From NCBI GenBank assembly GCA_016201765.1, contig JACQCE010000062.1, forward strand, positions 11,419-75,418: DNA of 64,000 nucleotides. The letters run 5' to 3'. Positions 3,226 to 32,029 of the stretch are shown one piece after another. The notes below the pieces were generated by a model, which was not told the DNA's origin, ran no database searches, and was given only the letters and a program-made list of their open reading frames with translations. Source of the stretch: Nitrospirota bacterium. Its GTDB lineage: Bacteria; Nitrospirota; Nitrospiria; JACQCE01. A program made the translations under genes and the position numbers. How positions within the stretch are numbered: position 1 is the first letter of the stretch; every line of letters starts with the position of its first letter.

Positions 3226-3283
3226 GGGCTGAGAATAGCAACGAAAACAGCGCTTGTCAAACGGGGAAAAGAGACTAAAAAAT

Positions 3284-3370
3284 GGTGGCTAGGTCGCTAG
3301 GTGGTTAGGTGGCAAGGAGAACAAAAACGGTTTTCCTAGCTACCCAGCTACCTCACTACCCAGCCACCTT
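3284..3370. repeat. imperfect palindromic array of degenerate 8-bp units (GGTGGCTAGGT family), copy 1
   Basis: Left arm ggtggctaggtcgctaggtggttaggtggcaagg. AT-rich centre. Right arm tagctacccagctacctcactacccagccacc is approximately its reverse complement. Nested inside an outer inverted repeat CTTGTCAAACGG / AAATTGACAAG. Confidence 0.55.
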
Positions 3371-3382
3371 GTTACGCAGAAA

Positions 3383-3412
3383 TTGACAAGTCTGTTTGAA
3401 AACTTTTATACT
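3383..3412 (+). promoter_or_regulatory. sigma70-like promoter (TTGACA-N18-TATACT) for hsp20-clpB
   Basis: TTGACA at 3383-3388 and TATACT at 3407-3412, about 75 nt upstream of the hsp20 start, directly after the palindromic element. Confidence 0.35.
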
Positions 3413-3487
3413 TTTTTCAAAAGGATATCAACTCGAACACCCACCGGCACACCCCGGGGCTCACCGGGGTCAGCAAGGGGATGAGGC

Positions 3488-3934
3488 ATGGGACGCGGAC
3501 CGTCAGACCCGTTTCGGGATCTCTTGTCGCTGCAAGAGCGCATGAATCAGTTGTTCGAGGAGAGCGCCCGGCGGAGCGGACTGCGACCGCACGTTGATGA
3601 ATGGGCCCCGCTGGTCGACATTCTGGACACCGATGACGCCATTATTTTGACCGCGGAAGTCCCGGGACTGGAGATCGGCGACATTACCCTTGAAGTGACC
3701 AATCACTATCTGACACTCCGCGGCGAACGTCTCTTCCCGCACAGCGACGGCAACGTCCACTACCACCAGCTGGAACGCGCATACGGAAAATTTGAACGGC
3801 TGTTCCATCTGCCCGAGGAAGTCGATCAGGGCCGGATCAACGCGACGCTGCGCGACGGCGTGCTGGAAATCGCGCTGCCCAAGCAACCGTCCCAACGCGC
3901 CTACACGATCCCCGTGCAGTCGCCGGAACCGTAG
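3488..3934 (+). CDS. small heat shock protein, Hsp20/alpha-crystallin family
   Basis: Alpha-crystallin domain motifs (VDILDTDDAIILTAEVPGL...GVLEIALPK). 148 aa. RBS GGGGATGAGG precedes the ATG. Confidence 0.85.
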   Translation: MGRGPSDPFRDLLSLQERMNQLFEESARRSGLRPHVDEWAPLVDILDTDDAIILTAEVPGLEIGDITLEVTNHYLTLRGERLFPHSDGNVHYHQLERAYGKFERLFHLPEEVDQGRINATLRDGVLEIALPKQPSQRAYTIPVQSPEP

Positions 3935-3961
3935 CCGCATCGCCGCAATCCAACCGGCACC

Positions 3962-6610
3962 ATGCGCCCCGACCAGCTCACCGTCAAAGCCCAGGAAGCA
4001 CTGCAGAGCGCCCAACAGACCGCCGAGCGCCGGGGGCATCAACAACTTGACGTCGAGCATCTTCTTCTGGCGCTCGTCCAGCAGCGTGACGGCCTGATCC
4101 CTCCCCTGCTCAAGAAGTTGGGCGTTGTTCCGGAATCGCTCGCCGCCCAATTGGAACAGTCACTTGAGCGCGTTCCCGGTGTCTCCGGCGCAGCCGCACC
4201 ATTGTCGGCGGCCCCCCGGTTGACGACCCTCTTCAGCCAGGCGGAGCGCGAAGCGGATCAGCTCAAGGATGACTACATCAGCACCGAACACCTGCTGCTG
4301 GCGGCGATGGAGAGCGGCGGAGCGGCGGACGCGCTGTTGAAGGAACAGGGCGTGACGAGGGACCGGCTGCTCAAAACACTGGCGGAGCTGCGCGGCTCGC
4401 AACGGGTGACCGATCAGAATCCGGAAGACAAGTACCAGGCGCTGGAACGGTACGGCCGGGACCTGACGGCGCTCGCCCGCCGGGGCAAACTCGATCCGGT
4501 CATTGGACGCGATGAAGAAATCCGCCGGGTCATTCAAGTCCTCTCCCGCCGGACGAAGAACAATCCGGTTCTCATCGGCGAGCCCGGCGTGGGGAAAACC
4601 GCCATCGCGGAGGGGCTGGCACAACGGGTGGTGGCCGGCGACGTGCCGGAAGGGCTCAAAGACCGGCGCGTGGTCGCGCTCGACATGGGCGCGCTGCTGG
4701 CCGGCGCCAAGTTCCGCGGCGAATTCGAAGAACGGTTCAAGGCCGTCATCAAGGAGGTCGTCGATTCGCAGGGGCAGGTGATCCTTTTCATCGACGAACT
4801 CCACACGCTGATCGGCGCGGGGGCCGCCGAAGGCGCCATCGACGCCTCCAACATGATCAAACCGGCCCTGGCGCGCGGCGAACTCCGCTGCGTGGGCGCC
4901 ACGACGCTGAACGAATACCGGCTGCACATCGAAAAGGACGCCGCCCTCGAACGGCGCTTCCAGCCCGTGCTGGTGAAGGAGCCCGACGTCGAGGAGACGA
5001 TCTCGATCCTCCGCGGGCTGAAGGAGCGGTATGAAGTCCACCACGGCGTGCGCATTCACGACGCCGCGCTGATCGCGGCCGCCACGCTGTCCCATCGCTA
5101 CATCTCCGACCGGTTCCTGCCCGACAAGGCCATCGATCTCATTGATGAAGCCGCCGCCAAGCTCCGGATGGAAATCGACAGCATGCCGTCGGAGTTGGAC
5201 GAAATCGAACGGCGCATCCGTCAATTGGAAATCGAGCGGCAGGCGATGACCAAGGAAACCGCGGCCTACGCCAAGGAACGGCTCGCCAAACTGGCCCAGG
5301 AACTGGGCGATCTGCAGGAGCGCTCCACACGGCTGAAGCTGCAATGGCAGCGGGAAAAAGAGGCCATCCAGGCCATTCGTGAACTGAAAAGCCGGATCGA
5401 ACAGACCAAAACCGCGGCGGAGCGGGCCGAGCGGGAGGCGGATCTGGCCAAGGCCGCCGAATTGCGCTACGGCCGCCTGACGGAGCTGGCCAAGGAATTG
5501 GAGATGAAAAATCGCCACCTGCAGGAGTTGCAAAAGGACCAGCGCCTGTTGAAGGAGGAGGTGGACGCCGAGGATATCGCGAAGATCGTCTCCAAATGGA
5601 CGGGCGTGCAGGTCTCGCGGTTGCTGGAAGGCGATCTGCAGAAGCTCATTCACATGGAAGAGCGGTTAAAAGCCCGGGTCGTGGGACAGGACGAGGCCGT
5701 CTCGGCGGTCTCCACCGCGGTCCGCAGGGCCCGGGCCGGGCTGCAGGATCCAAACCGGCCGCTGGGCTCATTCCTCTTTCTCGGCCCGACCGGCGTGGGC
5801 AAGACCGAACTGGCCCGCGCGCTGGCCGAATTTCTCTTCGATCATGAGCAGGCGATGATCCGGATTGACATGTCCGAATACATGGAGAAGCACGCGGTGG
5901 CGCGGCTCATCGGCTCCCCGCCGGGCTACGTGGGATTCGAAGAAGGGGGCCAGCTCACCGAAGCCGTGCGCCGCAAGCCCTACTCGGTGATTCTGTTCGA
6001 TGAGATCGAAAAAGCCCACCCGGACGTCTTTAATCTACTGCTGCAAGTCCTGGATGACGGCCGGCTGACCGACAGCCACGGCCGGACGGTCAACTTCAAG
6101 AACACCGTCATCATCATGACGTCGAACATCGCCAGCCAGGACATCCAGGAGCTGTCGGGCCGCGACGAGGCCGCGCTGCGCGCCAAGGTCATGGCGGCGC
6201 TGCGGGTCAACTTCCGCCCGGAGTTTCTCAACCGGATCGATGACATGATCATCTTCCACACGCTGGCGCCCGAGCAACTCCGCGCCATTGTCGAGATCCA
6301 GCTCCAGCGCGTCCGCAAGCAACTGGAGGAGAAACAGATCCGCCTGCAGTTGACCGACGCCGCCAAGGACGTGCTGGCGCGCGAAGGGTACGATCCGGTC
6401 TTCGGCGCCAGACCGCTCAAACGGGTCATTCAACGCGACCTGCTCAATCCCCTCTCCATCCGCCTGCTGGACGGCACGGTCAAGGAGGGCGACACCGTCT
6501 CGATAGACGTGAAGAACGGGGCGCTGCAGTTCATCTCCGGCGCCTCGCCCGCGTCACCGTCCCGCACATCGCCGCGAACCGCGCGCACATCGGCCCAGAC
6601 ATCGGATTGA
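3962..6610 (+). CDS. clpB: ATP-dependent chaperone ClpB
   Basis: Two AAA+ modules with Walker A GEPGVGKT and GPTGVGKT, a long coiled-coil middle domain, and an N-terminal Clp_N repeat. 882 aa. Only 27 nt downstream of hsp20. Confidence 0.95.
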
Positions 6611-6620
6611 CACGCACGCC

Positions 6621-6660
6621 GCGCCTGTGCTAATCACTGAACAGGCGCGAGCCGTTTTGC
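6621..6660 (+). terminator. putative hairpin terminator after clpB
   Basis: Stem GCGCCTGT / ACAGGCGC with a 12-nt loop, followed by a weak T-run (gagccgttttg). Confidence 0.3.
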
Positions 6661-6760
6661 AGATTTCATCCGTCATTCGATCGCAGGAACGCGACTTCTC
6701 GCACCGGCAAGACACGACACATCACAACCGTCACGCACCAATTCCCATCGCCACGACGCC

Positions 6761-7399
6761 ATGGCCACACTTCATATTATCCTGATCAGTGATGATCATG
6801 CGTTGATCCAGGGCGTGCGCGACCGTTTTGGTCATGCGGCCAAGGTCACCGTCCTGCACCGGTTGAAGCACCGCCTGCCCAAAACGACACCGCAGGAAGG
6901 ATCCGTTCTGTTTCTGATCGAAACATTGCACGCATCCGCACCCAGGCTGGCGAAATTGCTCCGCGCGGCTCACGGCGGGACCCCACCCTACATCGTCATC
7001 GGGACGGCCGCTCAATTGATCCGGGCCTGTGACCGGTTGCGATCGCTGCCGGCTGACGGCGGCCAGGAGGCCCTGGGGATGCCCATCGGCGCGTTAAATG
7101 GCGCACATGGGAATGGATCAGGCGGAAACGCCGCGGAGAAATTCTTTCACTCAAACGAGTTAGATTTGTCGCTTGGCGATTTTATGGAACGGAAATTTCA
7201 TGAATTTGTCAGAAAAATCAAACTCAGCGGCGGCAAAAATCTCTTTCAACTGCTGCGCCACGAATTTGAAAAACCCCTGATCACGCTCACGTTGAAGGAA
7301 ACCAAACATAATCAGGTGCAAGCCGCTGAATTACTGGGCATGAACCGCAACACACTCAGAAAAAAAATCAAAGAACTGAAAATTCCGGTCAAACGATAA
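6761..7399 (+). CDS. Fis-family HTH domain protein (atypical receiver-like N-terminus)
   Basis: C-terminal Fis/NtrC-type HTH (QVQAAELLGMNRNTLRKKIKELKI). N-terminus ILISDDHALIQGV resembles a receiver-domain start. Confidence 0.5.
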   Translation: MATLHIILISDDHALIQGVRDRFGHAAKVTVLHRLKHRLPKTTPQEGSVLFLIETLHASAPRLAKLLRAAHGGTPPYIVIGTAAQLIRACDRLRSLPADGGQEALGMPIGALNGAHGNGSGGNAAEKFFHSNELDLSLGDFMERKFHEFVRKIKLSGGKNLFQLLRHEFEKPLITLTLKETKHNQVQAAELLGMNRNTLRKKIKELKIPVKR

Positions 7400-7409
7400 C
7401 TCTTTTCTC

Positions 7410-7438
7410 TTGACTTCACCCAAACCGGCTGCTATCCT
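7410..7438 (+). promoter_or_regulatory. sigma70-like promoter TTGACT-N17-TATCCT upstream of HU
   Basis: Hexamers at 7410-7415 and 7433-7438. Confidence 0.4.
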
Positions 7439-7524
7439 ACGGCGGTCTTTCCGGCAATTACCGACGATGTAAACTCCGGTATTCATACAACGCCACACGA
7501 TTTTTATTGTCAAAGGATGCCCCC

Positions 7525-7797
7525 ATGACAAAAGCCGAATTAGTCAAACGCATTGCTTCTTCCGCCTCCATTCCCGATGTCACCGCCGCCAAGGCGCTCA
7601 CCGCCACGCTCGAAGGCATCACCGGGGCGCTCAAGCGCGGACAAAAAGTGGCACTGGTCGGTTTTGGCACGTTTTCCGTGGCCAAACGGCAGGCTAGGAA
7701 CGGGCGCAACCCCAGAACAGGCCAATCGATCAACATTCCGGCCGCCCGCGTCCCCCGTTTCAGCCCTGGCAAAGACCTCAAAAGCGCCATCCGGTAG
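7525..7797 (+). CDS. DNA-binding protein HU/IHF family
   Basis: MTKAELVKRIA...GFGTFSVAKRQARNGRNPRTGQSINIPAARVPRFSPGK is the classic HU beta-arm signature. ATG at 7525 is preceded by AAGGA. The ORF-track start at 7507 is a TTG. Confidence 0.85.
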   Translation: MTKAELVKRIASSASIPDVTAAKALTATLEGITGALKRGQKVALVGFGTFSVAKRQARNGRNPRTGQSINIPAARVPRFSPGKDLKSAIR

Positions 7798-7862
7798 CTT
7801 TTTTCTCTTCCGGTCGGGCCTGCAGCAGCCCGCCTCCAGCCCCGTCGTAAGCCGTGCCTTGC

Positions 7863-7892
7863 TTGACAAGCGGAAGAACTTTCGGCTAGGAT
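7863..7892 (+). promoter_or_regulatory. sigma70-like promoter TTGACA-N17-TAGGAT
   Basis: Hexamers at 7863-7868 and 7887-7892. It would drive the about 250-nt structured leader and tRNA-Val. Confidence 0.35.
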
Positions 7893-8150
7893 TTCGGCGA
7901 CATCCAACAGGTTGAAATGCTTCATTGTTGGATGCGCATGGCCGCTCAAAAAGCTCCAGCATCTGCCGATAGACAGCAGCGCGGCAGCCTGGGTTCTTTG
8001 AGCAGATCGGGCAGCGTCAATGCACAATCTGCTCAAAAAGCCCCGGATGCGAGGCCGCAGGGAGCGAAGCAACCGGAGTGTACTGTGTCGTACATGAGGA
8101 TTGCTGAGCGACCGAGCACGACGCAGGCGGGGATTTTTCAGCAGATTGTC

Positions 8151-8225
8151 AGGCGCGTAGCTCAGGGGTAGAGCGCTACCTTGACACGGTAGAGGTCGGC
8201 GGTTCGAGACCGCCCGTGCCTACCA
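8151..8225 (+). tRNA. tRNA-Val (anticodon GAC), CCA encoded
   Basis: Cloverleaf by eye. Acceptor AGGCGCG/CGTGCCT. D-arm AGCTCAGGGGTAGAGC. Anticodon stem CTACC/GGTAG with loop TTGACAC. T-arm GGCGG-TTCGAGA-CCGCC. Discriminator A plus CCA. Confidence 0.9.
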
Positions 8226-11283: not shown

Positions 11284-11288
11284 AGTAA

Positions 11289-11376
11289 AGGGGCAAGGGG
11301 CAAGTAGCAAGGGGCAAGAAGAACCATTTACAAATTTTTACAGTCTCCTTGCCCCATGACCCTTGACCCATGACCC
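11289..11376. repeat. palindromic array of GGGGCAAG octamers (left arm) and CTTGCCCC/CTTGACCC units (right arm)
   Basis: aggggcaaggggcaagtagcaaggggcaag ... ccttgccccatgacccttgacccatgaccc, in the rpmI-rplT intergenic region. Confidence 0.5.
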
Positions 11377-11430
11377 TGTCATTTATTATAGTTGGCCTTC
11401 ACAAATTCAGGTTTGAAATTGAGGTAAACC

Positions 11431-13489: not shown

Positions 13490-13492
13490 CGG

Positions 13493-15839: not shown

Positions 15840-17311
15840 GATTCCCTCCCCTTGACCAGCCTGGCGGCGAAAAAGCCGTCCATCCGCTCGCCTTTCAGCA
15901 CGGTGGAAAGATAGCCCTCCTGGGTCAGCAGCGTGGCCGCCGAGTCGGGCAGCAACGGCCGGGGATGCTCCAGCCGGAACGTCCGCTGCCGCTCCAGAAA
16001 TGCCTCGACCACCGACTGATTTTCCTCGGGCTCGGTCGAGCAGGTGCTGTAGACCAGGACGCCGCCCGGCTTGAGCAACGGCGCGATATTCGACAGGATC
16101 GCCAGCGCCGTCCGGGCCGAGTCGTGAATCGACCGGGCCGTCTTGATCCACTTCCCCTCCGGATGGCGGCGCAACACGCCGAGGCCTGAACAGGGCGCAT
16201 CGACCAAAATACGGTCGAACTTCATCCCCTCGGCCGTCGGCAGCCGCTTGGCCGCATCGGCCGCCATGGTCCGGATGATGGTCACGCCCAGCCGCCGGTT
16301 GTTCGCCTCCACCACCGCCAGCCGTTCGGGATTTCGGTCGACGGCCAGCACCGAGCCGCGGTTGTCCATCAACTCGGCCATCTCGGTCGCCTTGCCGCCC
16401 GGCGCCGCGCAGGCGTCGAGCGCCGTGTCACCGGGTTTCGGCGCCAGCAGCAACGGCACCAATTGCGACGCTTCATCCTGCACGTAGAACCAGCCCGAGG
16501 CGTAGCCGGGCAGGCCGGTCACCGCCCCGTCATGCTCGACATGAAGGCCGGCCGGGGCATGGGCGCAGCGCGTCGACGCAATGCCCTCCTCCTGCAGGAT
16601 GCGTTGATAGTCGGCCACGCCGAGCTTGAGCCGGTTGACGCGGATCGTCAGCGGCGCGGGCTCGTTGTTCGCCCGGCAGAGCGCGATCGTCCGCTGCGAC
16701 CCGTAGCGTTTGAGCCAGCGCCTGACCAGCCAGGTCGGATGGGAATAGTTGACCGAGATGTGCTCGATCGGCTGTTGCAGGAGATCCGGCAGCGTCCATT
16801 CGTGCCGGCGGATGATCAGGTTCCGCAACAGGGCGTTCACCAGCGGCGCGCTCTTGGCGCCCAGCCGCGCCTTGGTCAACTCCACCGACTGGTCGACCGC
16901 CGCGTAGTCAGGCACCCGCTTGAGCCAGAGCAACTGGTAGGCGCCCAACCGCAGAATCTGCTTGAGGACCGCCTGACGGGTATACGGCGTCTGATGCGCC
17001 ACCTGCTGCAGCCCCCAATCGAGAAAAAGCCGATGGCGCAAGACGCCATTGACCAGTTCATGGAGCAGGGCGCGGTCATCGGATGACAGAGGGGATGACA
17101 GAGGGGATGACAGAGGGGATGACAGGGGGGATGAGAGCGGGGTGGCGCCCTGCCGGGCCGCCTGATCGATCGCCTGCTGCGCGGTCGTCTTGCCCGTGTC
17201 GATTGCGAGCAACGCGGTGACGGCCGCCTGCCGGGCCGGCGTGCCGCGATACGTTGCCGACGGGCTTTTTTTTGAGACACGCGTTGCGGTCATGGCAGCG
17301 GATCTCCGCAC
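15836..17311 (-). CDS. rsmB: 16S rRNA (cytosine967-C5)-methyltransferase RsmB/Sun
   Basis: N-terminal NusB-like domain. C-terminal SAM-dependent methyltransferase with PCSGLGV and DAPCSG-type motifs. Contains a (PLSS)5 repeat. Confidence 0.85.
   Translation of the reverse strand: MRRSAAMTATRVSKKSPSATYRGTPARQAAVTALLAIDTGKTTAQQAIDQAARQGATPLSSPLSSPLSSPLSSPLSSDDRALLHELVNGVLRHRLFLDWGLQQVAHQTPYTRQAVLKQILRLGAYQLLWLKRVPDYAAVDQSVELTKARLGAKSAPLVNALLRNLIIRRHEWTLPDLLQQPIEHISVNYSHPTWLVRRWLKRYGSQRTIALCRANNEPAPLTIRVNRLKLGVADYQRILQEEGIASTRCAHAPAGLHVEHDGAVTGLPGYASGWFYVQDEASQLVPLLLAPKPGDTALDACAAPGGKATEMAELMDNRGSVLAVDRNPERLAVVEANNRRLGVTIIRTMAADAAKRLPTAEGMKFDRILVDAPCSGLGVLRRHPEGKWIKTARSIHDSARTALAILSNIAPLLKPGGVLVYSTCSTEPEENQSVVEAFLERQRTFRLEHPRPLLPDSAATLLTQEGYLSTVLKGERMDGFFAARLVKGRES
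17081..17140. repeat. 12-bp tandem repeat (GGATGACAGAGG x3 plus 2 degenerate copies) inside rsmB
   Basis: Five head-to-tail units. Encodes PLSSPLSSPLSSPLSSPLSS on the minus strand. Confidence 0.8.
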
Positions 17312-18933: not shown

Positions 18934-19030
18934 GTGACTGGTGGCTTGATGTTTGCACTCATCCCACACCGCGCAGCGTCGACATTCTGACACGCTTCCC
19001 GGCCAAAATCAACCGACTCAGATACAAGAG

Positions 19031-19148
19031 AAGGTGGCTTGGTGGTAAGGTCGCTGGGTAGCCAGGGAGAGATCATTGGAGCGCTGGGTGGCGCCCATGA
19101 TCACGGAGTTCCCCAGCCACCTAACCACCCAGCCACCGAGCTACCTTC
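19031..19148. repeat. palindromic array of degenerate 8-bp units (GGTGGCTAGGT family), copy 2
   Basis: aaggtggcttggtggtaaggtcgctgggtagccaggg ... ccccagccacctaaccacccagccaccgagctacctt. Directly upstream of the tRNA-fMet promoter. Confidence 0.55.
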
Positions 19149-19157
19149 TTACTTTCC

Positions 19158-19187
19158 TTGACACCATCAAGATCGCTCTGCTAGCAT
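19158..19187 (+). promoter_or_regulatory. sigma70-like promoter TTGACA-N18-TAGCAT for the split tRNA-fMet
   Basis: -10 hexamer ends 6 nt before tRNA position 1 (19193). Confidence 0.45.
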
Positions 19188-19226
19188 GCGGTCGCGGGGT
19201 GGAGCAGCCTGGTAGCTCGTCGGGCT

Positions 19227-19890
19227 CAATTCCGCGAGAACAACGTGGAAACCAAACTCAAGGGAGATATCGCAGAGCAGGCGGCCACTCTTCAAGCCCT
19301 GAAGCGTGGATGGGGAGTGCTCAAGCCCGTGGGGGACCGGTTGCCGTATGACCTGGTCCTCGATGTGGCGGGAGTCCTCGTCAAAGCGCAGGTCAAGTCT
19401 GCCTGGCTTGATGAGTCTTCTCAGAATCATGTCATCGACAATCGTCGCACCAAAACGAACCGTCGCGTCATGATTCGAGAGACCTATCAGCCCGAGGATT
19501 TTGACTTTGCGCTGGCTTACCTGCCTGAGTTAGATCTGTTTTATGTCTTCCCGGTCGAGGTTTTCATTGGCTACGGCAGTGAAATCCATTTGGTCGAAGC
19601 CGACAAGCGGCAGCGGAAGCCCCGGTCTTCAGGCTATCGCAACGCTTGGGAGTTGATCTCGCAATGGGCTGCGCAGAAGGAAACTTCTGTGCGATATCCT
19701 GTCAAATTCGGGGAAGCCGGTGATTCGGTAATCCCGAGCCAAGCGCTGGCAGCCGCAAGGCCGCTGGCGAAGGTGTAGAGACTTAATGGCAGGCACCCTC
19801 CGGTTCGGCCGAGGGTGAAGAGAAAGTCCAGACTGCAAACTGGTCCATCGTAGCGAACGCGGGCCAGGCAGCGAAAGCTGTAGCGGTACG
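19227..19890 (+). mobile_element. 664-bp intron in the anticodon loop of tRNA-fMet (probable group I intron), carrying a homing-endonuclease-like ORF
   Basis: The boundary 5' exon ...U | intron ... G | C 3' exon is the only placement consistent with the group I rule (U before the 5' splice site, terminal G of the intron). The 3' portion contains a GNRA hairpin (CAGCGAAAGCUG). The Synechocystis tRNA-fMet group I intron encoding I-Ssp6803I is a precedent. Confidence 0.65.
19245..19778 (+). CDS. intron-encoded PD-(D/E)XK-fold nuclease (putative homing endonuclease, I-Ssp6803I-like)
   Basis: 177-aa ORF entirely inside the intron. GTG start. Motif E(QAA)...PYDLVLDVAGVLVKAQVK fits a restriction-endonuclease-like D...(E/Q)xK core. 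Confidence 0.6.
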   Translation: METKLKGDIAEQAATLQALKRGWGVLKPVGDRLPYDLVLDVAGVLVKAQVKSAWLDESSQNHVIDNRRTKTNRRVMIRETYQPEDFDFALAYLPELDLFYVFPVEVFIGYGSEIHLVEADKRQRKPRSSGYRNAWELISQWAAQKETSVRYPVKFGEAGDSVIPSQALAAARPLAKV

Positions 19891-19934
19891 CATAACCCGA
19901 AGGTCAGAGGTTCAAATCCTCTCCCCGCAACAAT

Positions 19935-23400: not shown

Positions 23401-23661
23401 GGGGCCATTCCAGCGGCTTGAGGGGGCGAAGCCTGCGGGGACGCACGACAGGCGGTTCGCTCCCATGCCCGCATTAGTTTGTCAGCTTCTTCCGCGTTTT
23501 TTTCACTACACAAGAGGGCCAACGCACGTCTCAGGGCTGTGTCAAGGAGCTCTGATGGCTGGCGGCTTCTTTTCTCCTCAGCCTTCCCGTGGCGATCCGG
23601 GCGCCGACGGGGCCCAGCCCGAACCACACGCACGTACATTCCACCAACGCTGGAGGTTCCC

Positions 23662-25842
23662 ATGATGCCCTCACTCGTCCGCCATTGGCCCGTGTCGTCG
23701 CACAATCTGAAAAAAATCGCGTTCCTGCTGCTGCTCGGCGCGTCGGTTGCCGTCATCAGCATCCTCGTGCCGTCCAATGTCAGCCCCACGGTGTCGCCCT
23801 TGCACGGACAGACCCAGGAACTCGCGGGTTGGATGATCCAGGCCGTGGCCCAGTATGATCGCGAACGGCACACCCTGCTCAAACGGCAGATCGGGCAACT
23901 CGCCCGACAGATCAACCAATTCACGCAGAACCGGACCGGCCGTTTGCAGGAACAGTTCGGCCAGGCGATCGTGCAGACCCATCAGCGGATTCGCGCCGAA
24001 TGGATGCACCTGCGGGCCGAACGGGCGGCCACGGCACGAGCGTTGGATCAGATCATCGACACCCGATCGGCGCAATGGCAGGAGCAGTTGGGCAGGACCA
24101 TCGTGACCACCGCGCAGCGCGTTCCGGAGGGCGGCGCCGCCTTTCAGGCGGCGCTGCAGAAGAACGTGGCGCACCTGAGGCGGGTCGCGGAGCGAGCCGC
24201 CGCCCGGCTGAGCGATCAACTGGACGAATTGACACGCCAGCAGGCTGATTTTCCAAGTCTCATCGCCCTGCTCTACAAGGAGGCAATCGCCTCCGCCGGC
24301 CGATCCGCCCGGATGTTCGACGAAGGGCACCTGGCATGGGCGACCCGGGTCCATGCCGAGCTGGACCAGCAGGTCAAGTGGCAACGGCCGTCCGACGCCT
24401 ATGCGCAACTGGAGCTGGCGGCCAGATCGGCCTTGACCGGACCGGCCGGTGCCGGCGGCTTTATCGAATTCGGCCTCCCGGCGCTCGCGGGGCTGGTCTT
24501 CGTCATGGCGTGGTGCGGCACAACCCTGCGGAAGGACACGGACGCCGCCATGAACCGGAAAATCATCGGCCCCACGAAACCGCTCCTCCGGGAGCACGAT
24601 CGATCGGACGCCGAGGCGGACACCATGCGGCAACCCGTTCTCCTGTTTAGCTGGCCCAAAGAGGTCGTCTTCGGCGTCAACGTCTCGGCGACCATCGGGC
24701 GGTACGCCGCCAAGGATCGCGTTCACAAAGCGCTGCTGATCACCGACCGCAACCTCCACGACCGCGGCCTGCTGGAACCGCTGAAGGCGTCATGCTCCGG
24801 CGCCGGGATCGGGTGGACCGTCTACGACGAGGTCGCGCACGAGGCGCCCGACACGAACATCAGCAAGGCCTGCGAGACGTGCCGTCACACGGCGGCGGAT
24901 TTGATCGTCGCGGTCGGCGGCGGCAGCGTGATCGACACGGCGAAGGCGGTCGGGATTCTCGTCACCAACGGCGGCCGGCTCCAGGACTATGAGGGCCTGG
25001 ACAAGGTCCCCTCCCCGCCGCCGCATTTCTACGCCGTGCCGACCACCGCCGGTTGCGGCAGCGAAACCAGCCAATTCTGCGTCGCGCTGGATACCGCGCA
25101 CAAGCGGAAACTGGAGATCATCAGCCGCCGCGTCATCCCGCAGATGATCTTCATCGACCCGGCGTTGATGCTCACCATGTCCCCGGAGCTGACGGCCGGC
25201 AGCGGGATCGATGCGCTGACGAACGCGATCGAAGCCTATTGCTCCACCTGGGCCAGCCCGCTGACCGACACCCTGGCCTTGCACGCCATTCGGCTGATCG
25301 CGGGCGCGTTGCGCGTGGCCGTGTCCAACGGCGCCAACCTCGAAGCGCGCCGGCAAATGGCGGTGGCGGCGTTCGAAGCCGGCCTGGCGTTCAACAACGC
25401 CCAGTGCGGGGCGGCCCACGCCTTGGGCCACCCGATCGCCGGGCTGTTGAACGTGCCGGAGCGGCTGAGCGAAGGCATCCTCCTGCCGCATGTTATGCGC
25501 TACAATCTGCGCGCGGGCATGGCCCCCCGTCTGGCGGAGGTGGCCGGCGCCCTGGGCGAGCGGGTGGAGGACCTCGACCCGCAGGCCGCGGCGGAACGGG
25601 CCGTCATCGCCGTGCAGTGGCTGTTGTCGGATATCGGACTCCCCGCCACCCTGGACAAGATCGGCGTGGCCAAGGAGGCCATCCCGGAACTGACCCGGCA
25701 GGCGGCGCAGGACACCTTTCTGCGGACAAACCCGCGCACGTTGCACGCGCAAGAGATCGAACACCTCTATCTCCGCGCCTTTGAGGAACAAGCATGGAGA
25801 GCCTACGCCTCAGTGAACCGATGGGATGAGACGGTGCACTGA
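23662..25842 (+). CDS. membrane-anchored fusion protein: N-terminal TM / about 270-aa helical domain / TM / C-terminal iron-containing alcohol dehydrogenase (Fe-ADH family), paralog A
   Basis: C-terminal about 390 aa with Fe-ADH motifs GGGSVIDTAKAVG, VPTTAGCGSETS, GIDALTNAIEAYCS, CGAAHALGHPIAG. Hydrophobic segments near the N-terminus and at GFIEFGLPALAGLVFVMAWCG. RBS GGAGG 5 nt before ATG 23662. Confidence 0.8.
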   Translation: MMPSLVRHWPVSSHNLKKIAFLLLLGASVAVISILVPSNVSPTVSPLHGQTQELAGWMIQAVAQYDRERHTLLKRQIGQLARQINQFTQNRTGRLQEQFGQAIVQTHQRIRAEWMHLRAERAATARALDQIIDTRSAQWQEQLGRTIVTTAQRVPEGGAAFQAALQKNVAHLRRVAERAAARLSDQLDELTRQQADFPSLIALLYKEAIASAGRSARMFDEGHLAWATRVHAELDQQVKWQRPSDAYAQLELAARSALTGPAGAGGFIEFGLPALAGLVFVMAWCGTTLRKDTDAAMNRKIIGPTKPLLREHDRSDAEADTMRQPVLLFSWPKEVVFGVNVSATIGRYAAKDRVHKALLITDRNLHDRGLLEPLKASCSGAGIGWTVYDEVAHEAPDTNISKACETCRHTAADLIVAVGGGSVIDTAKAVGILVTNGGRLQDYEGLDKVPSPPPHFYAVPTTAGCGSETSQFCVALDTAHKRKLEIISRRVIPQMIFIDPALMLTMSPELTAGSGIDALTNAIEAYCSTWASPLTDTLALHAIRLIAGALRVAVSNGANLEARRQMAVAAFEAGLAFNNAQCGAAHALGHPIAGLLNVPERLSEGILLPHVMRYNLRAGMAPRLAEVAGALGERVEDLDPQAAAERAVIAVQWLLSDIGLPATLDKIGVAKEAIPELTRQAAQDTFLRTNPRTLHAQEIEHLYLRAFEEQAWRAYASVNRWDETVH

Positions 25843-26031: not shown

Positions 26032-27318
26032 ATGGATCCGCAACAACCAAGCCGCATCCGCTGGCAAATCGTGGGATTGTTGTTCGTGATCAGCGTGGTG
26101 ACCTACGTGGATCGCGTCAATATCGCCGTCGCCGGCAAGCTCATGATGCCGGAGTTCGGCCTGTCGGCCGTGCAGATGGGGACGGTCTTCTCGTCATTCG
26201 TCCTGGGCTATGCGCTTTTTCAAATCCCCGGCGGCTGGATGGGCGATCGATGGGGCGCCCGGCTGGTGCTCGCGGCGGCGGTGCTCTGGTGGTCGCTCTT
26301 CACCGTCCTCACGGCCGCCGCAGCTCATCCATTGTTGTCGTCGACGATCGGCGCGCTGGGCGCCCTGCTCGCGGTGCGGTTTCTCATCGGCGTGGGCGAA
26401 GCGGCGGCACTGCCCAACTTCAACCGGACGGTGGCCGACTGGCTCGCGCCGTCGGAACGGGGCGTGGGCATGGGCATCTCGATCGGCGGGATCGGTTTCG
26501 GCTCCGCGATCACGCCGCCGCTCGTCGCCTGGCTGATGACGCGCTACGGATGGCCCGTCGCCTTCTATGTAACGGGCGGGATCGGCCTGCTGGTAGCGGC
26601 AATCTGGTATGGACTGGCCCGGGACCGCCCGCATGAACATCCACGCGTCAACAGGGCCGAACTTGACTGGATCACCCAGGCGGCGCCCGCCGCGCCGGCC
26701 ACCGACTCGCCGTCGCCGCCATTCGGCGCGCTGCTGAAGCGGCCATCGGTCTGGTTTCTCACGCTCAGTTATACGATGCTCGGGTATATCGCGTATATCT
26801 ACCTCTCCTGGTTTTTTCTCTATCTGGTCAACGTCCGCCACTTTACCGTCCTGCAGGGCTCGTTCTGGGCCGCCGGCCCGTTTCTCGCCATGGCGGTGGG
26901 CTGCCCGGCCGGCGGATGGCTCAGCGATCGACTCACGGCCCATTATGGCCATCGGATTGGACGGGCCGGCGTCGGCGGGTCGGGACTGGTGCTCACCGCC
27001 GGCTTCATCTACAGCGGCGCCGGCGTCGATGATCCCTATGCGGCCATCATTCTGCTCTCGCTGGGGGCGGGCATACTCTATGCCACGGCGGGCGCCTACT
27101 GGGCGAGCACGATCGATCTGTCTCCGCATCATGCCGGCGCGCTGTCCGGTCTGATGAACATGGGCGCCAATCTCGGCGGCGTCGTCTCACCAACCCTGAC
27201 GCCGCTCATCGGTGAACGATGGGGCTGGCCGGTCGCCCTGACCGTCGCGGCCGGTGTGGCGTTGATCGGGGGTTTGCTGTGGCTGGGTGTGACAGATCAT
27301 GAAGAACGATCGGCCTGA
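26032..27318 (+). CDS. MFS transporter
   Basis: 12 predicted TM helices. MFS loop motif GxLaDRxGaR (GGWMGDRWGARL). Alternative upstream start at 25972. Confidence 0.75.
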   Translation: MDPQQPSRIRWQIVGLLFVISVVTYVDRVNIAVAGKLMMPEFGLSAVQMGTVFSSFVLGYALFQIPGGWMGDRWGARLVLAAAVLWWSLFTVLTAAAAHPLLSSTIGALGALLAVRFLIGVGEAAALPNFNRTVADWLAPSERGVGMGISIGGIGFGSAITPPLVAWLMTRYGWPVAFYVTGGIGLLVAAIWYGLARDRPHEHPRVNRAELDWITQAAPAAPATDSPSPPFGALLKRPSVWFLTLSYTMLGYIAYIYLSWFFLYLVNVRHFTVLQGSFWAAGPFLAMAVGCPAGGWLSDRLTAHYGHRIGRAGVGGSGLVLTAGFIYSGAGVDDPYAAIILLSLGAGILYATAGAYWASTIDLSPHHAGALSGLMNMGANLGGVVSPTLTPLIGERWGWPVALTVAAGVALIGGLLWLGVTDHEERSA

Positions 27319-27435
27319 CCTCCAAATCGGCCTCATACGGACGGAAGGATCAGCATATCAAGTGCTTGCAGGCCACCACCCGCCAGCCAAATTATCCGCC
27401 CAGTTGCAGATGACCGGCATCGGATCGGAATAGAT

Positions 27436-27590
27436 ATTCGAACCGGGTAGTGGGTCAGTTTGATGGATTCCACCGTGGCAAAAATGGGGACACGTCCCAA
27501 TTTCGTTGCGTGCCGTGCGTCGCACGAGGACATTGGGACGTGTCCCCATTTTTGAGCCGGTTGCGGTGAAACTGACCCACTACCTCGAAC
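27436..27590. repeat. about 155-bp nested perfect/near-perfect palindrome
   Basis: Outer arms TCGAACCGGGTAGTGGGTCAGTTT / AAACTGACCCACTACCTCGAACC. Inner arms AAAAATGGGGACACGTCCCAATTTCG / ATTGGGACGTGTCCCCATTTTT. Central GTGCGTCGCAC palindrome. Confidence 0.8.
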
Positions 27591-27598
27591 CGATTGTA

Positions 27599-27627
27599 CT
27601 TGACATTATTTCCGAAGAGGCGTATAA
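27599..27627 (+). promoter_or_regulatory. sigma70-like promoter TTGACA-N17-TATAAG upstream of ADH-fusion paralog B
   Basis: Immediately after the 155-bp palindrome. About 345-nt leader. Confidence 0.4.
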
Positions 27628-27972
27628 GTCGAGTATCAACAGTTGAAAAACGGGCCGTGGTGTTGTGTTGCGGCGCCCGGCTCGCAGCAGGATCATTTCC
27701 CCTCGTTTTATCTGCACTACTTCCAGCAACGGAAGGTTCAGTGTGGCCCGGAGCCGAAAGGATGCGCTCCGAAGGCTTGGCATTTTCTTTTTCCGCCCGT
27801 CTGTTGTTGAAGAATCACGCCTTTACAGGCTGGGATTCTTCGACATGAGTGGAGAAAGGCTCCTTGGTATCCGCTCGCTGACCCCGCCTTCAGAGGGCGG
27901 GGATTGCGCTCGCTATGCATGTTCGCCGCACATGCCCTCCGGGCGTGTGCACACCAACGGAGGTGCCGAGCC

Positions 27973-30159
27973 ATGAACCGGACACATCACATCATGCGGC
28001 CGATCGGATCCAGCGGGCGGCGTCTGCTCCTGCCCGCAAACCTTGTTGCAATCTGCGTGATCGGGCTGCTGGCCCCGCAGGCCGCACCGGCTGCACCAAC
28101 ACCGACTCACGACCAGCTTCAGCAGCGGCTCGGCCAGACCATCGTCATGGTGGCCCGGCACGATCAAGCGCTCCTGGACCGACAGGTGGAGCAGATGACC
28201 CGGCTGATGCGGGGAAGCACACGGTTCCAGCAGGGCCAGGCCGGGCGGATAGAGGAAAGTCTCGGGCTCGCCATCATCAAGACGGCGGGCTCGATTCAGG
28301 AGGAGCAGTCCGCTCTGAAGAGTCGCATGATCCTTATTGGCCGTGAGCTTGATCTGCTGTCGGAAGATTCCGCGGCCGGCCGTCAGACACAACTGGGGTG
28401 GGCGGTTCGCACGGCCGCGCAACGCGCGCCACAAGGCGGCGCGGCCTTTCAGGCCGCGCTGGGGAAGGAGATCACCCGGCTGGAACAGGTCCGGCAACGC
28501 ACGACCATCCGCCTGCAGGATGAGCTGCGCGCTCTGAAACGCCTGGACGCCGACTTTGCCCAAACCATTCCGCAACGTTACCAGAAGGCCATGGAGTCCA
28601 CCCGCCTGACGGTTCTCATGGCGGATGACTCCACTGTCGTCTGGACCGACCGACAACTCCAGGAATTGTCCCATCAGGTGCTGCAGCAACAATCTTCACA
28701 AGTCTATGCGCAACTGGCCGGCCTCACGCGGGCGGCCCTGACCGCGCCGGCCGGCGTCGGCGGGTTCATCGAATACGGCCTGGCCGCCATGACCGGAGCG
28801 ATGGCCGTCATGGTGTGGTTCGGCCTATCGACCAGAAAGGAGAGAGCCCCGTTGCCCGTCAATCCCACAGACGAGGCCGTGTCATCACTGCGCCGCTGGA
28901 GCATGCAAGGCGGCTCGGGGAACGGGGGCAACAGCCACGAGGCGAATATCCTGTCCCAGCTCGTCACATTCTTCAGCTGGCCCAGGGAGATCGTCTTCGG
29001 CAACAACGTGATCGGAACCATCGGGCGGTATGCCGAGAGGGAACGGATCAAGAGGGCGTTGGTGATCACGTCCCGGGACCTTCATCACCATGGCCTGCTC
29101 GAACCGCTGAAGGCATCCTTGTCGCACAGCGGGATTGCGTTCCGCGTCTACGACCACGTCGAGCACGACGTGCCCGACGTGGTCATCGCCAATGCCGGCA
29201 AAGAGTACCAACGAATGGCCACCGATCTGATTGTCGCAGTCGGCGGTGGGAGCGTCATTGACACGGCGAAAGCGGTGGGGATCCTTGCCACCAACGGTGG
29301 CCTCATCCAAGACTACGAAGGCTTGGACACCATCCCATCACCGCTGCCCCATTTTTTCGCCGTGCCCACCACCGCCGGCTGCGGCAGCGAAACGAGCCAG
29401 TTCTGCGTCGTGCTGGATACCGCGCACAAACGGAAACTGGAGATCGTCAGCCGTCTGGTCATTCCGCAGATGATCTTCATCGATCCGACGCTGATGGTCA
29501 GCATGCCGCGCGAACTGACGGCCGGCAGCGGAATCGATGCGTTAAGCAACGCGATCGAAGCCTACTGCTCCACGTGGGCCAGCCCCCTGACCGACACCCT
29601 GGCGCTGGACGCCGTCAGGCTGATCTCGGAGTCGTTGCGCACGGCCGTGGCCGACGGCAGCAATCTCGAAGCCCGGCGCCAGATGGCCGTGGCCGCATTT
29701 GAAGCCGGCCTGGCGTTCAACAACGCGCAGTGCGGAGCGGCGCACGCCCTGGGCCATCCGGTGGCCGGTCTGTTCAACGTGCCGGAGCGGGTGAGCGAAG
29801 CCATCTTGCTGCCGCATGTCATGCGGTACAACCTGGAAACCAACATGGCCAGGATGGCGCAACTGGCCGTGGCCATGGGGGAGTCGGTGGAAGGTCTCAC
29901 CCAACAGGAAGCGGCCGAGCAGGCGATCTCCGCCGTGCAATGGCTGCTGCTGGATATCGGTCTTCCAGCGACTTTTGACAAGCTTGGTGTCGCCAATGAC
30001 GCCATCCCCGAACTCGCCCGGCAAGCCGCGCAGGATTTCTTTCTGCGGACGAATCCTCGAACGCTCACCCGGGGGGAGATCGAGCAACTGTACCACCAAG
30101 CGTTTCAAAAGTTCGGCAGAGATACGGTGCATCGCAAAACCGCCGGCGTCATCCTGTGA
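27973..30159 (+). CDS. membrane-anchored TM / helical-domain / TM / Fe-ADH fusion protein, paralog B
   Basis: Same architecture and motifs as paralog A (about 60-80% identity in the ADH part). Shared N-domain motif AAQRxPxGGAAFQAAL and the TM segment GGFIEYGLAAMTGAMAVMVW. Confidence 0.8.
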   Translation: MNRTHHIMRPIGSSGRRLLLPANLVAICVIGLLAPQAAPAAPTPTHDQLQQRLGQTIVMVARHDQALLDRQVEQMTRLMRGSTRFQQGQAGRIEESLGLAIIKTAGSIQEEQSALKSRMILIGRELDLLSEDSAAGRQTQLGWAVRTAAQRAPQGGAAFQAALGKEITRLEQVRQRTTIRLQDELRALKRLDADFAQTIPQRYQKAMESTRLTVLMADDSTVVWTDRQLQELSHQVLQQQSSQVYAQLAGLTRAALTAPAGVGGFIEYGLAAMTGAMAVMVWFGLSTRKERAPLPVNPTDEAVSSLRRWSMQGGSGNGGNSHEANILSQLVTFFSWPREIVFGNNVIGTIGRYAERERIKRALVITSRDLHHHGLLEPLKASLSHSGIAFRVYDHVEHDVPDVVIANAGKEYQRMATDLIVAVGGGSVIDTAKAVGILATNGGLIQDYEGLDTIPSPLPHFFAVPTTAGCGSETSQFCVVLDTAHKRKLEIVSRLVIPQMIFIDPTLMVSMPRELTAGSGIDALSNAIEAYCSTWASPLTDTLALDAVRLISESLRTAVADGSNLEARRQMAVAAFEAGLAFNNAQCGAAHALGHPVAGLFNVPERVSEAILLPHVMRYNLETNMARMAQLAVAMGESVEGLTQQEAAEQAISAVQWLLLDIGLPATFDKLGVANDAIPELARQAAQDFFLRTNPRTLTRGEIEQLYHQAFQKFGRDTVHRKTAGVIL

Positions 30160-30369
30160 ACGGGCTCCATGACTGACCGGCCGCACGCTCCCCGGTCGCC
30201 GGTTACTTGATGTGGGGACCCGTGCGGAAAGAGCGAGGAAAGGTCCTCCGATGCCCCCACACCCCAAGCCACCGTTCATGTCCCATTGGCCACCGTAGCC
30301 CTTGATTCTTTCTTAGCCCGTGCGGAGAGATTTCGGAATCCAGCCGCCTGATCGACTCGAGTCTTCGCC

Positions 30370-31428
30370 TCATACTCGCACCTCTTTCCAGAGGGCCGCC
30401 ACAAGCGCATCAAACTGATGCCGATCCCCATGCAGCAGTGCGGGACGGAGTTGGAATTGTGTCTGATCCTGCATGCCGAGTCCCACGTCCCGCGCGTGCT
30501 TGATCTGCCGCTGCTCCCACACGCCGATCTTGCTCACACCTTCCCATTTGTTAAAGTGCTTGATCAACGCGAGGCCCGTCACATCGGCGGCGATCCGGTC
30601 GCCGCTGGCCATGATCAGGTTGGTCTTCTCCGACGGTCCCTCCCACGGGCCGTCAGCGACCATAATCGTCGTCGCATCGACGATGTTGAGGATCGGATGG
30701 ACGGCCAGGTTCAGTTCGGCAATCACTTCTTCCCACTTCGCCGGATTGACGCGATACGGCCGGTGGCGCGGATGGGTCACGCCGACCAGATTCTTCAGGC
30801 AGATCGAATAGACGGCGTTCCGGTGGGTTTTGACCACCGGCACATTCACGAACAGATCGGCCTCATAGACCGGCCTGGCAATGTGAATACTCGGCGTCAG
30901 CCAGGCGCCGGGCGGCTTCAACTCGATCCACTCCGCGTCATCAAAATCGATGACCTCGGCCCCCGCCTCCCGCGCGGCCCGGGCAATGCCCGTCCGTTCA
31001 AGATTCTTGCTCGTCGGCAATCTCATCATCGCGGACATATCGCCCACGATCACGCGCTTGGCGCCCGCCTCCCTGAACAATCGGACGACGCTGCGCACCG
31101 CCTCCGGATTGGTCGTGGCCGGCGGCGGCTCGCCCGACAGGACATTGGGTTTGACCAGGACGGTTTTGCCCCGGACGGACAGGCGATCCAAGCCGCCGAT
31201 CAGCTTGACCGCTTCGCGGACCATGTGGTCGACATCTTCTCCGCGCACGACGCTGACGAGCACCTTGCCGTCCTTGATAAACGGATTGGGCGGCGGGCGT
31301 CTCCAGACGCCGACATCACCCTTTGGGGAGAACAGCGAACGGAACAATCCGAATGGATTCATGCCGAGGAGGAATGCGGGCGTCAGCAGCCCGAAGCGGT
31401 GGAGCATCTCCCGGCGCGAGGGAGCCAT
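30370..31428 (-). CDS. Tat-signal exported protein, DUF362-like (assignment tentative)
   Basis: SRREMLHRFGLL twin-arginine motif. 352 aa. Family assignment by recollection only. Confidence 0.4.
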   Translation of the reverse strand: MAPSRREMLHRFGLLTPAFLLGMNPFGLFRSLFSPKGDVGVWRRPPPNPFIKDGKVLVSVVRGEDVDHMVREAVKLIGGLDRLSVRGKTVLVKPNVLSGEPPPATTNPEAVRSVVRLFREAGAKRVIVGDMSAMMRLPTSKNLERTGIARAAREAGAEVIDFDDAEWIELKPPGAWLTPSIHIARPVYEADLFVNVPVVKTHRNAVYSICLKNLVGVTHPRHRPYRVNPAKWEEVIAELNLAVHPILNIVDATTIMVADGPWEGPSEKTNLIMASGDRIAADVTGLALIKHFNKWEGVSKIGVWEQRQIKHARDVGLGMQDQTQFQLRPALLHGDRHQFDALVAALWKEVRV

Positions 31429-31436
31429 CGCCGCTG

Positions 31437-31829
31437 TTACGCTCGATTGGAGCGGGGCCGCTCGATCAACTCAATCTCGTATTTGTCCGGGGCGTCGATA
31501 AAACAGAACCGGCCGCCGGATGACGACGTCGTCGGACCATCGGTGAGGGGAATGCCCTTGGCCTTCAATTGAGCGATCGTCCGATCCAGATTGTCCACTT
31601 CGAACGCCAGATGAACCAGATCCTCCGGCACCTGCACGGCGCCGCTGGCCGGAAACGAGCAGAGCTCGATTTCTTCGTCACTATTGGGCACGCGCAGAAA
31701 GGCCAGTTCCGATCCGCGCGGCGAGCGATGGCGCTCCGTCACCTCCAGCCCCAGGACGTCCCGATAGAACCGGATCGTTTCATCGAGATTGTTCACCCGC
31801 ATCCGGGTATGGAGTAACTTCGTAATCAC
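31437..31829 (-). CDS. VOC/glyoxalase-fold protein
   Basis: HTRMRVNNLDETIRFYRDVLGLEV...HLAFEV is the typical glyoxalase I-like pattern. 130 aa. Confidence 0.65.
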   Translation of the reverse strand: MITKLLHTRMRVNNLDETIRFYRDVLGLEVTERHRSPRGSELAFLRVPNSDEEIELCSFPASGAVQVPEDLVHLAFEVDNLDRTIAQLKAKGIPLTDGPTTSSSGGRFCFIDAPDKYEIELIERPRSNRA

Positions 31830-31869
31830 GAGGCGGAGCCTAGCGCGATGTTCGGTATCCTGTCAAGAG

Positions 31870-31989
31870 AAGGTAGCTAGGTCGTCAGGTAGCCAGGTGG
31901 CTAGACAAACAAATCAGTATTTCCCCGAGTGACCTAGCCACCTTTGCAGTTCCCAGCTCTACCTAGCCACCTAGTTACCCAGCCACCTT
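31870..31989. repeat. palindromic array of degenerate 8-bp units (GGTGGCTAGGT family), copy 3
   Basis: aaggtagctaggtcgtcaggtagccaggtggctag ... acctagccacctttgcagttcccagctctacctagccacctagttacccagccacctt. Shares its 5' end (AGAGAAGGTrGCT) with copy 2. Confidence 0.55.
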
Positions 31990-32000
31990 TTTTCCCTCTA

Positions 32001-32029
32001 TTGACTTCCTCCAAAACGACCGATAGGAT
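32001..32029 (+). promoter_or_regulatory. sigma70-like promoter TTGACT-N17-TAGGAT
   Basis: Directly after repeat copy 3. The -10 overlaps the first ATG of the ubiC-like ORF, so either the promoter or that start codon is misassigned. Confidence 0.3.

Follow-up and report, generated by a model that had tools for sequence, protein, structure and literature searches.

A 64-kb stretch of contig JACQCE010000062.1 from a Nitrospirota bacterium (hereafter the window, i.e., the whole 64,000 nucleotides that were analyzed) contains three arrays of degenerate octamers that adjoin sigma70-like promoters, and this raises the question of whether the arrays belong to the promoters, have inserted next to them, or simply accumulate there. 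The initial annotation had regarded them either as cruciform or protein-binding modules tied to promoter function, or as a family resembling repetitive extragenic palindromic (REP) sequences or miniature transposable elements with inverted repeats (MITEs). Our data show that the adjacency to promoters is real, but that relatives without the arrays keep the promoters intact. On balance, we favor with modest confidence the view that the elements are opposed simple-sequence repeats generated by slippage, which are dispensable, occupy a tolerant gap between divergent promoters and act, at most, as evolvable spacers.

Each of the three elements (3284-3370, 19031-19148, and 31871-31988) consists of opposed arrays of the degenerate octamer NGGTRGYT, namely a G/T-rich arm of NGGTRGYT units, an unrelated center, and then an A/C-rich arm made of that word's complement. 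Tandem Repeats Finder (TRF) detected a period of 8 at 3284-3317 and 3338-3368, at 19112-19145, and at 31871-31898 and 31961-31988. For all elements of the window, including those built from other words, it returned periods of 7 or 8 with 3.5-7.4 copies, which is head-to-tail repetition beyond chance of the kind known from long simple-sequence repeats. The two-unit pattern GGTRGYTNGGTRGYT, allowing at most one mismatch, matched 13 times in the window versus 0.14 matches expected from shuffles, and all 13 matches fell inside the three elements, confirming their presence at the places first reported. All array copies in the window are intergenic. Their centers had been described as AT-rich, which holds for elements 1 and 3, but not for element 2, whose center is GC-rich; the loops of the three elements are mutually unrelated, and no two copies share the same unit order.

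Although the arms are complementary through their shared word, the palindromes that they had been taken for are not borne out. Arm-to-arm identity is only 61-73% in the symmetric register versus 58-79% when one arm is shifted by one unit. Since the symmetric register is no better than the shifted one, the arms pair only through the shared repeat word and have not been maintained unit by unit through compensatory change; the elements are thus opposed arrays of one word and not true palindromes. Folding prediction, which had been proposed as a check, gave long RNA hairpins on both strands of the three octamer elements (-43 to -72 kcal/mol, z -4.6 to -7.2), and the range for all elements, including those with other words, was -35 to -72 kcal/mol (z -3.4 to -7.2). 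A strand preference, sought among these RNA folds as a sign of RNA-level selection, was not consistent. With DNA parameters, the hairpins reached -18 to -32 kcal/mol (z -2.6 to -4.6). The near-perfect, position-by-position pairing of a cruciform is not seen in the octamer elements, in which 27-39% of the arm positions mismatch, and this mismatch together with the weak DNA folding makes cruciforms unlikely. The G-rich arms hold at least eight GG tracts and no GGG, and two-tetrad quadruplexes formed from them are possible in principle. A scan with Rfam 15 found no family at any element, the sole matches in the window being a tRNA-Val and a group I intron.

The arrays had been placed upstream of one promoter each. 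The right-hand -35 hexamers at 3383, 19158, and 32001 were confirmed, but a second promoter, facing outward on the minus strand, lies at the left edge of every element, and each octamer element therefore sits between two back-to-back sigma70-like promoters. These serve SLT (-) and hsp20-clpB (+) at element 1 (site 1), def (-) and tRNA-fMet (+) at element 2 (site 2), and the glyoxalase (-) and chorismate lyase (+) genes at element 3 (site 3). The array fills the gap between the two -35 boxes, leaving 4-23 nt to the left box and 9-12 nt to the right one, and the boxes make up the base of the inverted repeat as a whole. At 3225, 31829, and 32037, start codons follow the conserved -10 hexamers by ~7-8 nt, which suggests leaderless mRNAs and very tight packing. 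The coordinates are collected in Table 1, in which L-numbers denote fetched loci or contigs of other genomes; the def promoter was read from the sequence and scores below the threshold of our promoter scan (8 of 12).

Table 1. Repeat arrays, flanking promoters, and other inverted repeats in the window
Feature	Position	Strand	Remarks
Element 1, G/T-rich arm	3284..3317		~4 units of GGTGGCTA; TRF period 8, 4.2 copies; pattern matches
Element 1, loop	3318-3337		homologous to the L125 loop, which is inverted there
Element 1, A/C-rich arm	3338..3370		units of AGCTACCC; TRF, pattern matches
Element 2, G/T-rich arm	19031..19065		pattern matches, fold
Element 2, A/C-rich arm	19107..19148		TRF 19112-19145; pattern matches
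Element 3, G/T-rich arm	31871..31902		TRF; pattern matches
Element 3, A/C-rich arm	31928..31988		inner unit group 31928-31944 and main array 31955-31988
SLT promoter-like site	3232..3260	-	TTGACA-17-TATTCT; -35 at 3255-3260, left edge of element 1; conserved in L122, L125, L127, L134, L141
hsp20-clpB promoter-like site	3383..3412	+	TTGACA-18-TATACT, right edge of element 1; invariant alignment columns
Probable def promoter	18984..19012	-	TTGATT-17-CAGAAT; -35 at 19007-19012, left edge of element 2; identical in L129, L131
tRNA-fMet promoter-like site	19158..19187	+	TTGACA-18-TAGCAT; conserved in L129
Probable glyoxalase promoter	31838..31866	-	TTGACA-17-TAGGCT; -35 at 31861-31866, 4 nt from array; read from sequence
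Chorismate lyase promoter-like site	32001..32029	+	TTGACT-17-TAGGAT; GTG at 32037; conserved in L129, L135
Heptamer pair AAGGGGC/CCTTGAC	11288..11377		between rpmI and rplT; period 7 (TRF)
155-bp near-perfect palindrome	27436..27590		non-repetitive, single-copy; upstream of promoter TTGACA(27600)-17-TATAAG
Heptamer pair AGTGACG/ACTCGTC	38126..38252		between convergent genes; period 7 (TRF)
Octamer pair AGGTGATC	62520..62616		between convergent GGDEF and ftsY-like genes; period 8 (TRF)

Promoter-like sites occur at a density of ~0.2 per kb per strand. On a rough, self-made gene map of the window (~6 divergent and ~47 other junctions), octamer arrays occupy 3 of the ~6 divergent junctions versus 0 of the ~47 others (hypergeometric P ~1e-3), and their adjacency to promoters is non-random with respect both to random positions and to intergenic regions. 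Most of the strong promoter-like sites in the window have no array, including seven of the strongest (142, 7863, 14497, 20038, 47577[-], 53484[-], and 57819[-]), and the remaining repeat pairs, at 11288, 38126, and 62520, all lie off divergent sites.

To find out how the promoters fare when the arrays change, relatives were compared through syntenic contigs around the three sites. The ClpB protein of the window matches a 'Nitrospirae bacterium' protein from a metagenome-assembled genome (MAG) at 100%, and the matches that follow all belong to Nitrospirota/Nitrospiria. Relative to the window, ClpB is 97% identical in the closest relative, a single 40-kb contig that carries both L122 and L129, ~91-92% identical in L125, L133, L134/L135, and L141, and 89% identical in L127/L128. 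A second metagenome scan added two further site-1 orthologues and nothing more, and a metagenome scan with the tRNA-fMet promoter plus tRNA as query gave no matches.

An alignment of seven site-1 spacers left, as sole invariant columns, both -35 boxes and the hsp20 -10 hexamer. What lies between the boxes differs: the window, L125, L133, and L134 have an octamer pair, L141 has an array remnant decayed by point mutation, L122 has a spacer of only 23 bp, and the sequence in L127, L128, and L140 is unrelated. The L125 array is inverted with respect to that of the window, since its loop GGAAAACCGTcatTGTTCTCC is the reverse complement of the window loop and the left arm of the window matches the reverse complement of the L125 right arm, an outcome expected of recombination between the arms. 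At site 2, both promoters are kept in L129 and L131 with a different repeat as filler. At site 3, the array was found only in the window among the relatives compared, and both -35 boxes are kept in L129 (28 bp apart), L138 (37 bp apart), and L135, in which other genes are inserted between them; the glyoxalase -35 box with its GAG flank is conserved in all three. Altogether, the closest relative has no octamer array at any of the three sites and keeps every -35 and -10 hexamer. Since the promoters are conserved whatever fills the spacer, they do not depend on the arrays, and the proposed tie to promoter function holds only as an adjacency. Orthologous sites vary in unit number, unit order, and presence, as variable noncoding repeats do, and we conclude from the comparison that the arrays are hypervariable filler. 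The arrays also help to pinpoint -35/-10 pairs that are conserved, as well as starts that look leaderless, in a Nitrospirota lineage not yet in culture.

The filler between def and tRNA-fMet in L129 (4740-5110) comprises ~390 bp of repeated GTGGGGGCCTGTGCGG/CCCCCACACCCCGGGCC segments and is shorter in L131; it is another variable filler family at the same promoter pair. The 9-mer ATCCGATCA, which two L129 fillers have in common, was set aside because it is merely frequent across that genome. In L140 (2805-2835), the hsp20 -35 region is tandemly duplicated (AAATTGACAAGTCAG twice), which is direct evidence of slippage-type duplication at the hsp20 promoter.

In the reading that we favor, the elements are opposed, head-to-head pairs of long simple-sequence repeat arrays with 7-8 nt units and constitute fast-evolving, dispensable noncoding DNA, in which each arm would grow, shrink, and mutate independently by replication slippage and recombination between the arms would flip the interior. 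In this compact genome, ~100 bp could be added without damage to a promoter or transcript only between back-to-back -35 boxes. Given the many apparently leaderless mRNAs, the gap between the -35 boxes would be the only tolerant place in a divergent region, and arrays that accumulate in it would look as if they were positioned at promoters. They would have no sequence-specific promoter function; the only likely effect would be structural, with the -35 spacing increased from ~25 bp to ~125 bp, and this wider spacing should reduce steric and supercoiling interference between two polymerases. The repeat pairs built from other words bear on this as well. The convergent site of the 38126 element also holds a pair in L129, made of another word (ATTTTCG/CGAAAAT). 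The rpmI|rplT pair recurs in L127 with fewer units and is absent from L122, L125, L133, and L134. Both the change of word and the difference in copy number count in favor of this reading.

Several observations weigh against a purely neutral slippage origin. The GGTRGCT word fills three separate divergent spacers and none of the ~47 other junctions, and one word at three sites is not predicted by in situ slippage from random seeds; moreover, no GGTRGCT seed was found at site 3 in the relatives L129, L135, and L138. The shared word and the missing seed suggest that the arrays are copied or targeted in some way, or that they are under selection. In addition, the site-1 array persists across lineages that differ by 8-9% in ClpB, which is long for an unstable neutral repeat. 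Finally, the near-universal chirality described below, with the G/T-rich arm 5', is beyond slippage alone. The chirality, which is near-absolute, and the enrichment at divergent promoters suggest some bias, be it mutational or selective.

The arrays are not confined to the window, as would be expected of the wider family that the initial annotation had envisaged. In addition to the orthologous sites of the relatives, a search with a three-unit pattern yielded at least 119 loci, and among the matches listed these octamer arrays are spread over at least seven phyla; their hosts include Gemmataceae and other Planctomycetota, Anaerolineales and other Chloroflexota, Kiritimatiellia, Verrucomicrobiota, Acidobacteriota, and Armatimonadota. 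Many arrays in other phyla are two-armed, and single arms also exist in many genomes. A sigma70-like site adjoins only 2 of 20 two-armed arrays in other phyla among the matches listed. Several of these arrays end 0-21 nt before start codons that Pfam alignments, made for five of them, confirmed from residue 1, with genes for an extracytoplasmic function (ECF) sigma factor, DsrC, and UDP-glucose dehydrogenase behind them; arrays that abut start codons in this way are probably transcribed leaders or intercistronic spacers. The G/T-rich arm comes 5' on both strands in 26 of the 28 two-armed arrays of the window and of L003-L121, including all three window elements; in arrays of other words, the G-rich arm leads in roughly three-quarters of cases. 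In a Chloroflexota MAG (L003, 5997-6748), three consecutive intercistronic spacers around a dsrC-like gene each carry a repeat pair; their words differ (ATTTCAG, GGTGGTTA, and ACTCCCAC), and the chirality is reversed in the ACTCCCAC pair, where the C-rich arm leads.

Among known systems, the closest precedent is found in Xanthomonas campestris and X. axonopodis, in which arrays of the heptamer GGGAATC form convergent inverted pairs (Rehm et al. 2015, PMC4692102). There as here, two degenerate tandem arrays of one word lie close together on opposite strands in convergent orientation, the G-rich arm leading; the pairs are intergenic, their unit number changes from one relative to another, and they could fold into a hairpin or a G-quadruplex. 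The arrays described here differ in having an 8-nt unit, NGGTRGYT, with GG rather than GGG tracts, in occurring in Nitrospirota and at least six other phyla, and in lying, as far as the window copies are concerned, between divergent promoters, whereas the Xanthomonas repeats are under-represented between divergent open reading frames (ORFs) (PMC4692102). What is new here is the octamer unit, the phyla, and the position between divergent promoters, and convergent simple-repeat pairs are extended from Xanthomonas to an octamer word in Nitrospirota, Planctomycetota, Chloroflexota, Kiritimatiellia, Acidobacteriota, and others. Mazel et al. reportedly described heptamers of short tandemly repeated repetitive (STRR) sequences in cyanobacteria in 1990. 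Long simple-sequence repeats of 5-11 nt are found in large GC-rich genomes (Mrazek et al. 2007, as summarized in PMC4679880). Our arrays resemble such repeats in their tandem 7-8 nt units, noncoding location, patchy occurrence in large GC-rich genomes, and the polymerase slippage invoked for them; as far as that summary goes, those descriptions concern direct arrays and do not include opposed arms, chirality, or a promoter-flanked position. The TAACTGA repeats of Beggiatoaceae, Cyanobacteria, and Bacteroidetes (169 direct and one indirect), for which a role in translation has been proposed (MacGregor 2015, PMC4679880), are likewise a short word that is shared by distant phyla, intergenic, and often directly upstream of start codons, as are the octamers of Gemmataceae and Chloroflexota. 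Unlike them, our arrays have opposed arms, and the three window elements lie upstream of promoters.

A possible, though doubtful, alternative is that the arrays are functional structural modules of divergent promoters, acting as an evolvable spacer or, by means of slipped, hairpin, or G-quadruplex structures possible in many registers, as a sink for the negative supercoils that divergent transcription generates; in its extreme form, a cruciform would sequester both -35 boxes. The restriction to divergent junctions, the -35 boxes at the base of the inverted repeat, the GG tracts of the G-rich arms, and the retention of the site-1 array in four lineages are all consistent with such a module. In addition, without arrays the -35 boxes would be 23-28 bp apart, at which distance the polymerases should clash. 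However, the closest relative keeps its promoters intact with no array at any of the three sites, the L141 array is decaying through point mutation, and the Xanthomonas pairs are scarcer than expected between divergent ORFs (PMC4692102); the DNA hairpins are weak, and the in-register complementarity is poor for cruciform extrusion. The five-fold difference in divergent-promoter spacing between near-identical genomes offers a natural experiment on promoter interference.

It is unlikely, in our view, that the elements work as RNA hairpins, that is, as bidirectional terminators or 3'-end stabilizers between convergent genes and as RNase III or other processing sites between cistrons, with the divergent-promoter copies being inert. 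Such a role would cover the pairs at 38126, 62520, and 11288 as well as the arrays in other phyla, and it agrees with the strong RNA folds, with the hairpin that the convergent site keeps in both the window and L129 despite the different word, and with arrays of L003, L121, and L070 that come after one stop codon and before the ribosome-binding site or start codon that follows it. In the L121 locus (2801-3262), from a Gemmataceae MAG, GGTGGTT octamer-pair arms flank a 430-nt insert outside any rRNA, which encodes a 23S-rRNA-intervening-sequence (IVS) protein on the minus strand within the hairpin loop (PF05635, E 1.6e-21). IVS stems are cleaved by RNase III, and a gene for an IVS protein inside an octamer hairpin recalls those stems. 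Nevertheless, no consistent U-tract follows the stems. A terminator scan called no element; TTTTTT occurs after the element 3 stem, and AAAAAA occurs before the element 1 stem. G.U pairs are not preferred over A.C on the transcribed strand, and the rpmI|rplT pair folds more strongly on the antisense strand (-42.6 versus -35.3 kcal/mol). The octamer elements, all three of them upstream of both flanking promoters, are probably untranscribed, and arms that are not maintained unit by unit argue in the same direction.

We consider it somewhat less likely still that the arrays come from a directional repeat-making process; if that process is favored in the negatively supercoiled stretch that separates divergent promoters, its products could uncouple back-to-back promoters as evolvable spacers or as sinks for supercoils. 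One candidate would be hairpin-primed fold-back synthesis, possible only from the G/T-rich strand because of its wobble self-pairing; another would add repeats at both 3' ends of a break that is then rejoined. With either candidate, the 5' position that the G/T-rich arm takes on both strands, across at least seven phyla, would be explained.

A mobile family with an insertion preference for promoters, akin to REPs, bacterial interspersed mosaic elements (BIMEs), or MITEs, is improbable. REPs are conserved, imperfect palindromes of 20-40 bp that are headed by GTAG or CGTC, exist in many near-identical copies, and are accompanied by a RAYT (Y1 transposase) gene, and MITEs combine a conserved body with terminal inverted repeats and target-site duplications. 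Our elements share with both that they are small, intergenic, hairpin-forming, multi-copy, and polymorphic in presence between close relatives. The same word recurs at three loci, and elements 2 and 3 have in common the opening AGAGAAGGT, as first reported, and ACCTTNTT at their right ends. That opening, however, consists in large part of flank that was there before: L129, L135, and L138, whose site 3 is empty, keep CAAGAG, and the flank TGTCAAGAG is conserved in them; at site 2, L129 has ACAAAGAAAGGT where the window has ACAAGAGAAGGT, which is similar but not identical. Unlike REPs and BIMEs, the octamer arms are degenerate tandem units in which no conserved palindrome with a GTAG/CGTC head was seen; unlike MITEs, they have no conserved body. 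Comparison of occupied and empty sites revealed replacement of one filler by another, with neither a clean excision site nor an evident target-site duplication. Unit number and order differ in every copy, single-arm arrays occur in many genomes, and no transposase or RAYT domain was found among the 30 window ORFs scanned, a partial scan of the 64 kb. Given the unrelated loops and the lack of target-site duplications, the elements are not REPs or MITEs. The arrays do not amount to a new regulatory module, and their annotation as promoter elements, REPs, or MITEs should be avoided.

Arrays of binding sites for a regulator or nucleoid protein controlling both promoters are hardly credible: the word is disposed symmetrically around the promoter pair and one flanking operon (hsp20-clpB) belongs to the heat-shock response, but with a period of 8 bp neighboring sites would face different sides of the helix, the units are highly degenerate and conserved in neither number nor order, the flanking genes are functionally unrelated (SLT/hsp20, def/tRNA-fMet, glyoxalase/ubiC), and the closest relative lacks the arrays. 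An inverted repeat, TTGAAAAC-N8-TTTTTCAA, covers the hsp20-clpB -10 hexamer (window 3395-3420) and is conserved in L122, L125, L133, L134, and L141; it is a plausible candidate for a heat-shock repressor operator and more promising as a regulatory site than the octamers. Operators of CtsR, HrcA, or HspR, considered for hsp20, do not look like the arrays, and the separate inverted repeat is the better candidate. A CRISPR identity was rejected, as the arrays contain no spacers and their units are only 8 nt long.

Elements of the same architecture but with different words had been listed as further octamer arrays. Three such pairs do exist, but the period is 8 only at 62520-62616 and is 7 at the other two. 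In the rpmI|rplT pair, a right-arm unit itself supplies the TTGACC -35 box of a promoter-like site (11363-11392). The 155-bp palindrome is indeed followed by a -35 hexamer, which starts at 27600 rather than 27599 as first given, but it belongs to a different class from the repeat-based elements. It pairs as a cruciform would, with a DNA fold of -58 kcal/mol (z -12.4), and it is absent from L129 and L135, in which the downstream promoter is conserved. Nested inverted repeats at 7984-8149 (30-nt arms at 7984/8021; 28-nt arms at 8024/8122, 86% complementary) are not repeat-based either and end directly before the tRNA-Val gene (8151-8225). A 12-nt unit, GGATGACAGAGG, repeated 5.2 times at 94% identity (17081-17142), is an in-frame coding tandem repeat in an rsmB-like gene on the minus strand.

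A group I intron of ~660 nt (Rfam RF00028, 19650-19842) interrupts the tRNA-fMet gene next to element 2 (19193-19934) in the anticodon loop, following GGGCT, and holds an ORF for a PD-(D/E)XK endonuclease (19245-19778, PF11645). PF11645 is the family to which I-Ssp6803I belongs, the homing endonuclease of the tRNA-fMet intron in cyanobacteria. L129 and L131 have an intact, intron-less tRNA-fMet gene behind the same promoter. Two further genes of the window are absent from L129, namely a second iron-containing alcohol dehydrogenase gene (23479-25842), 57% identical to its neighbor at 27904-30159, and a low-GC (~51%) TPR gene (36365-38124); judging from this comparison, both look like recent insertions.

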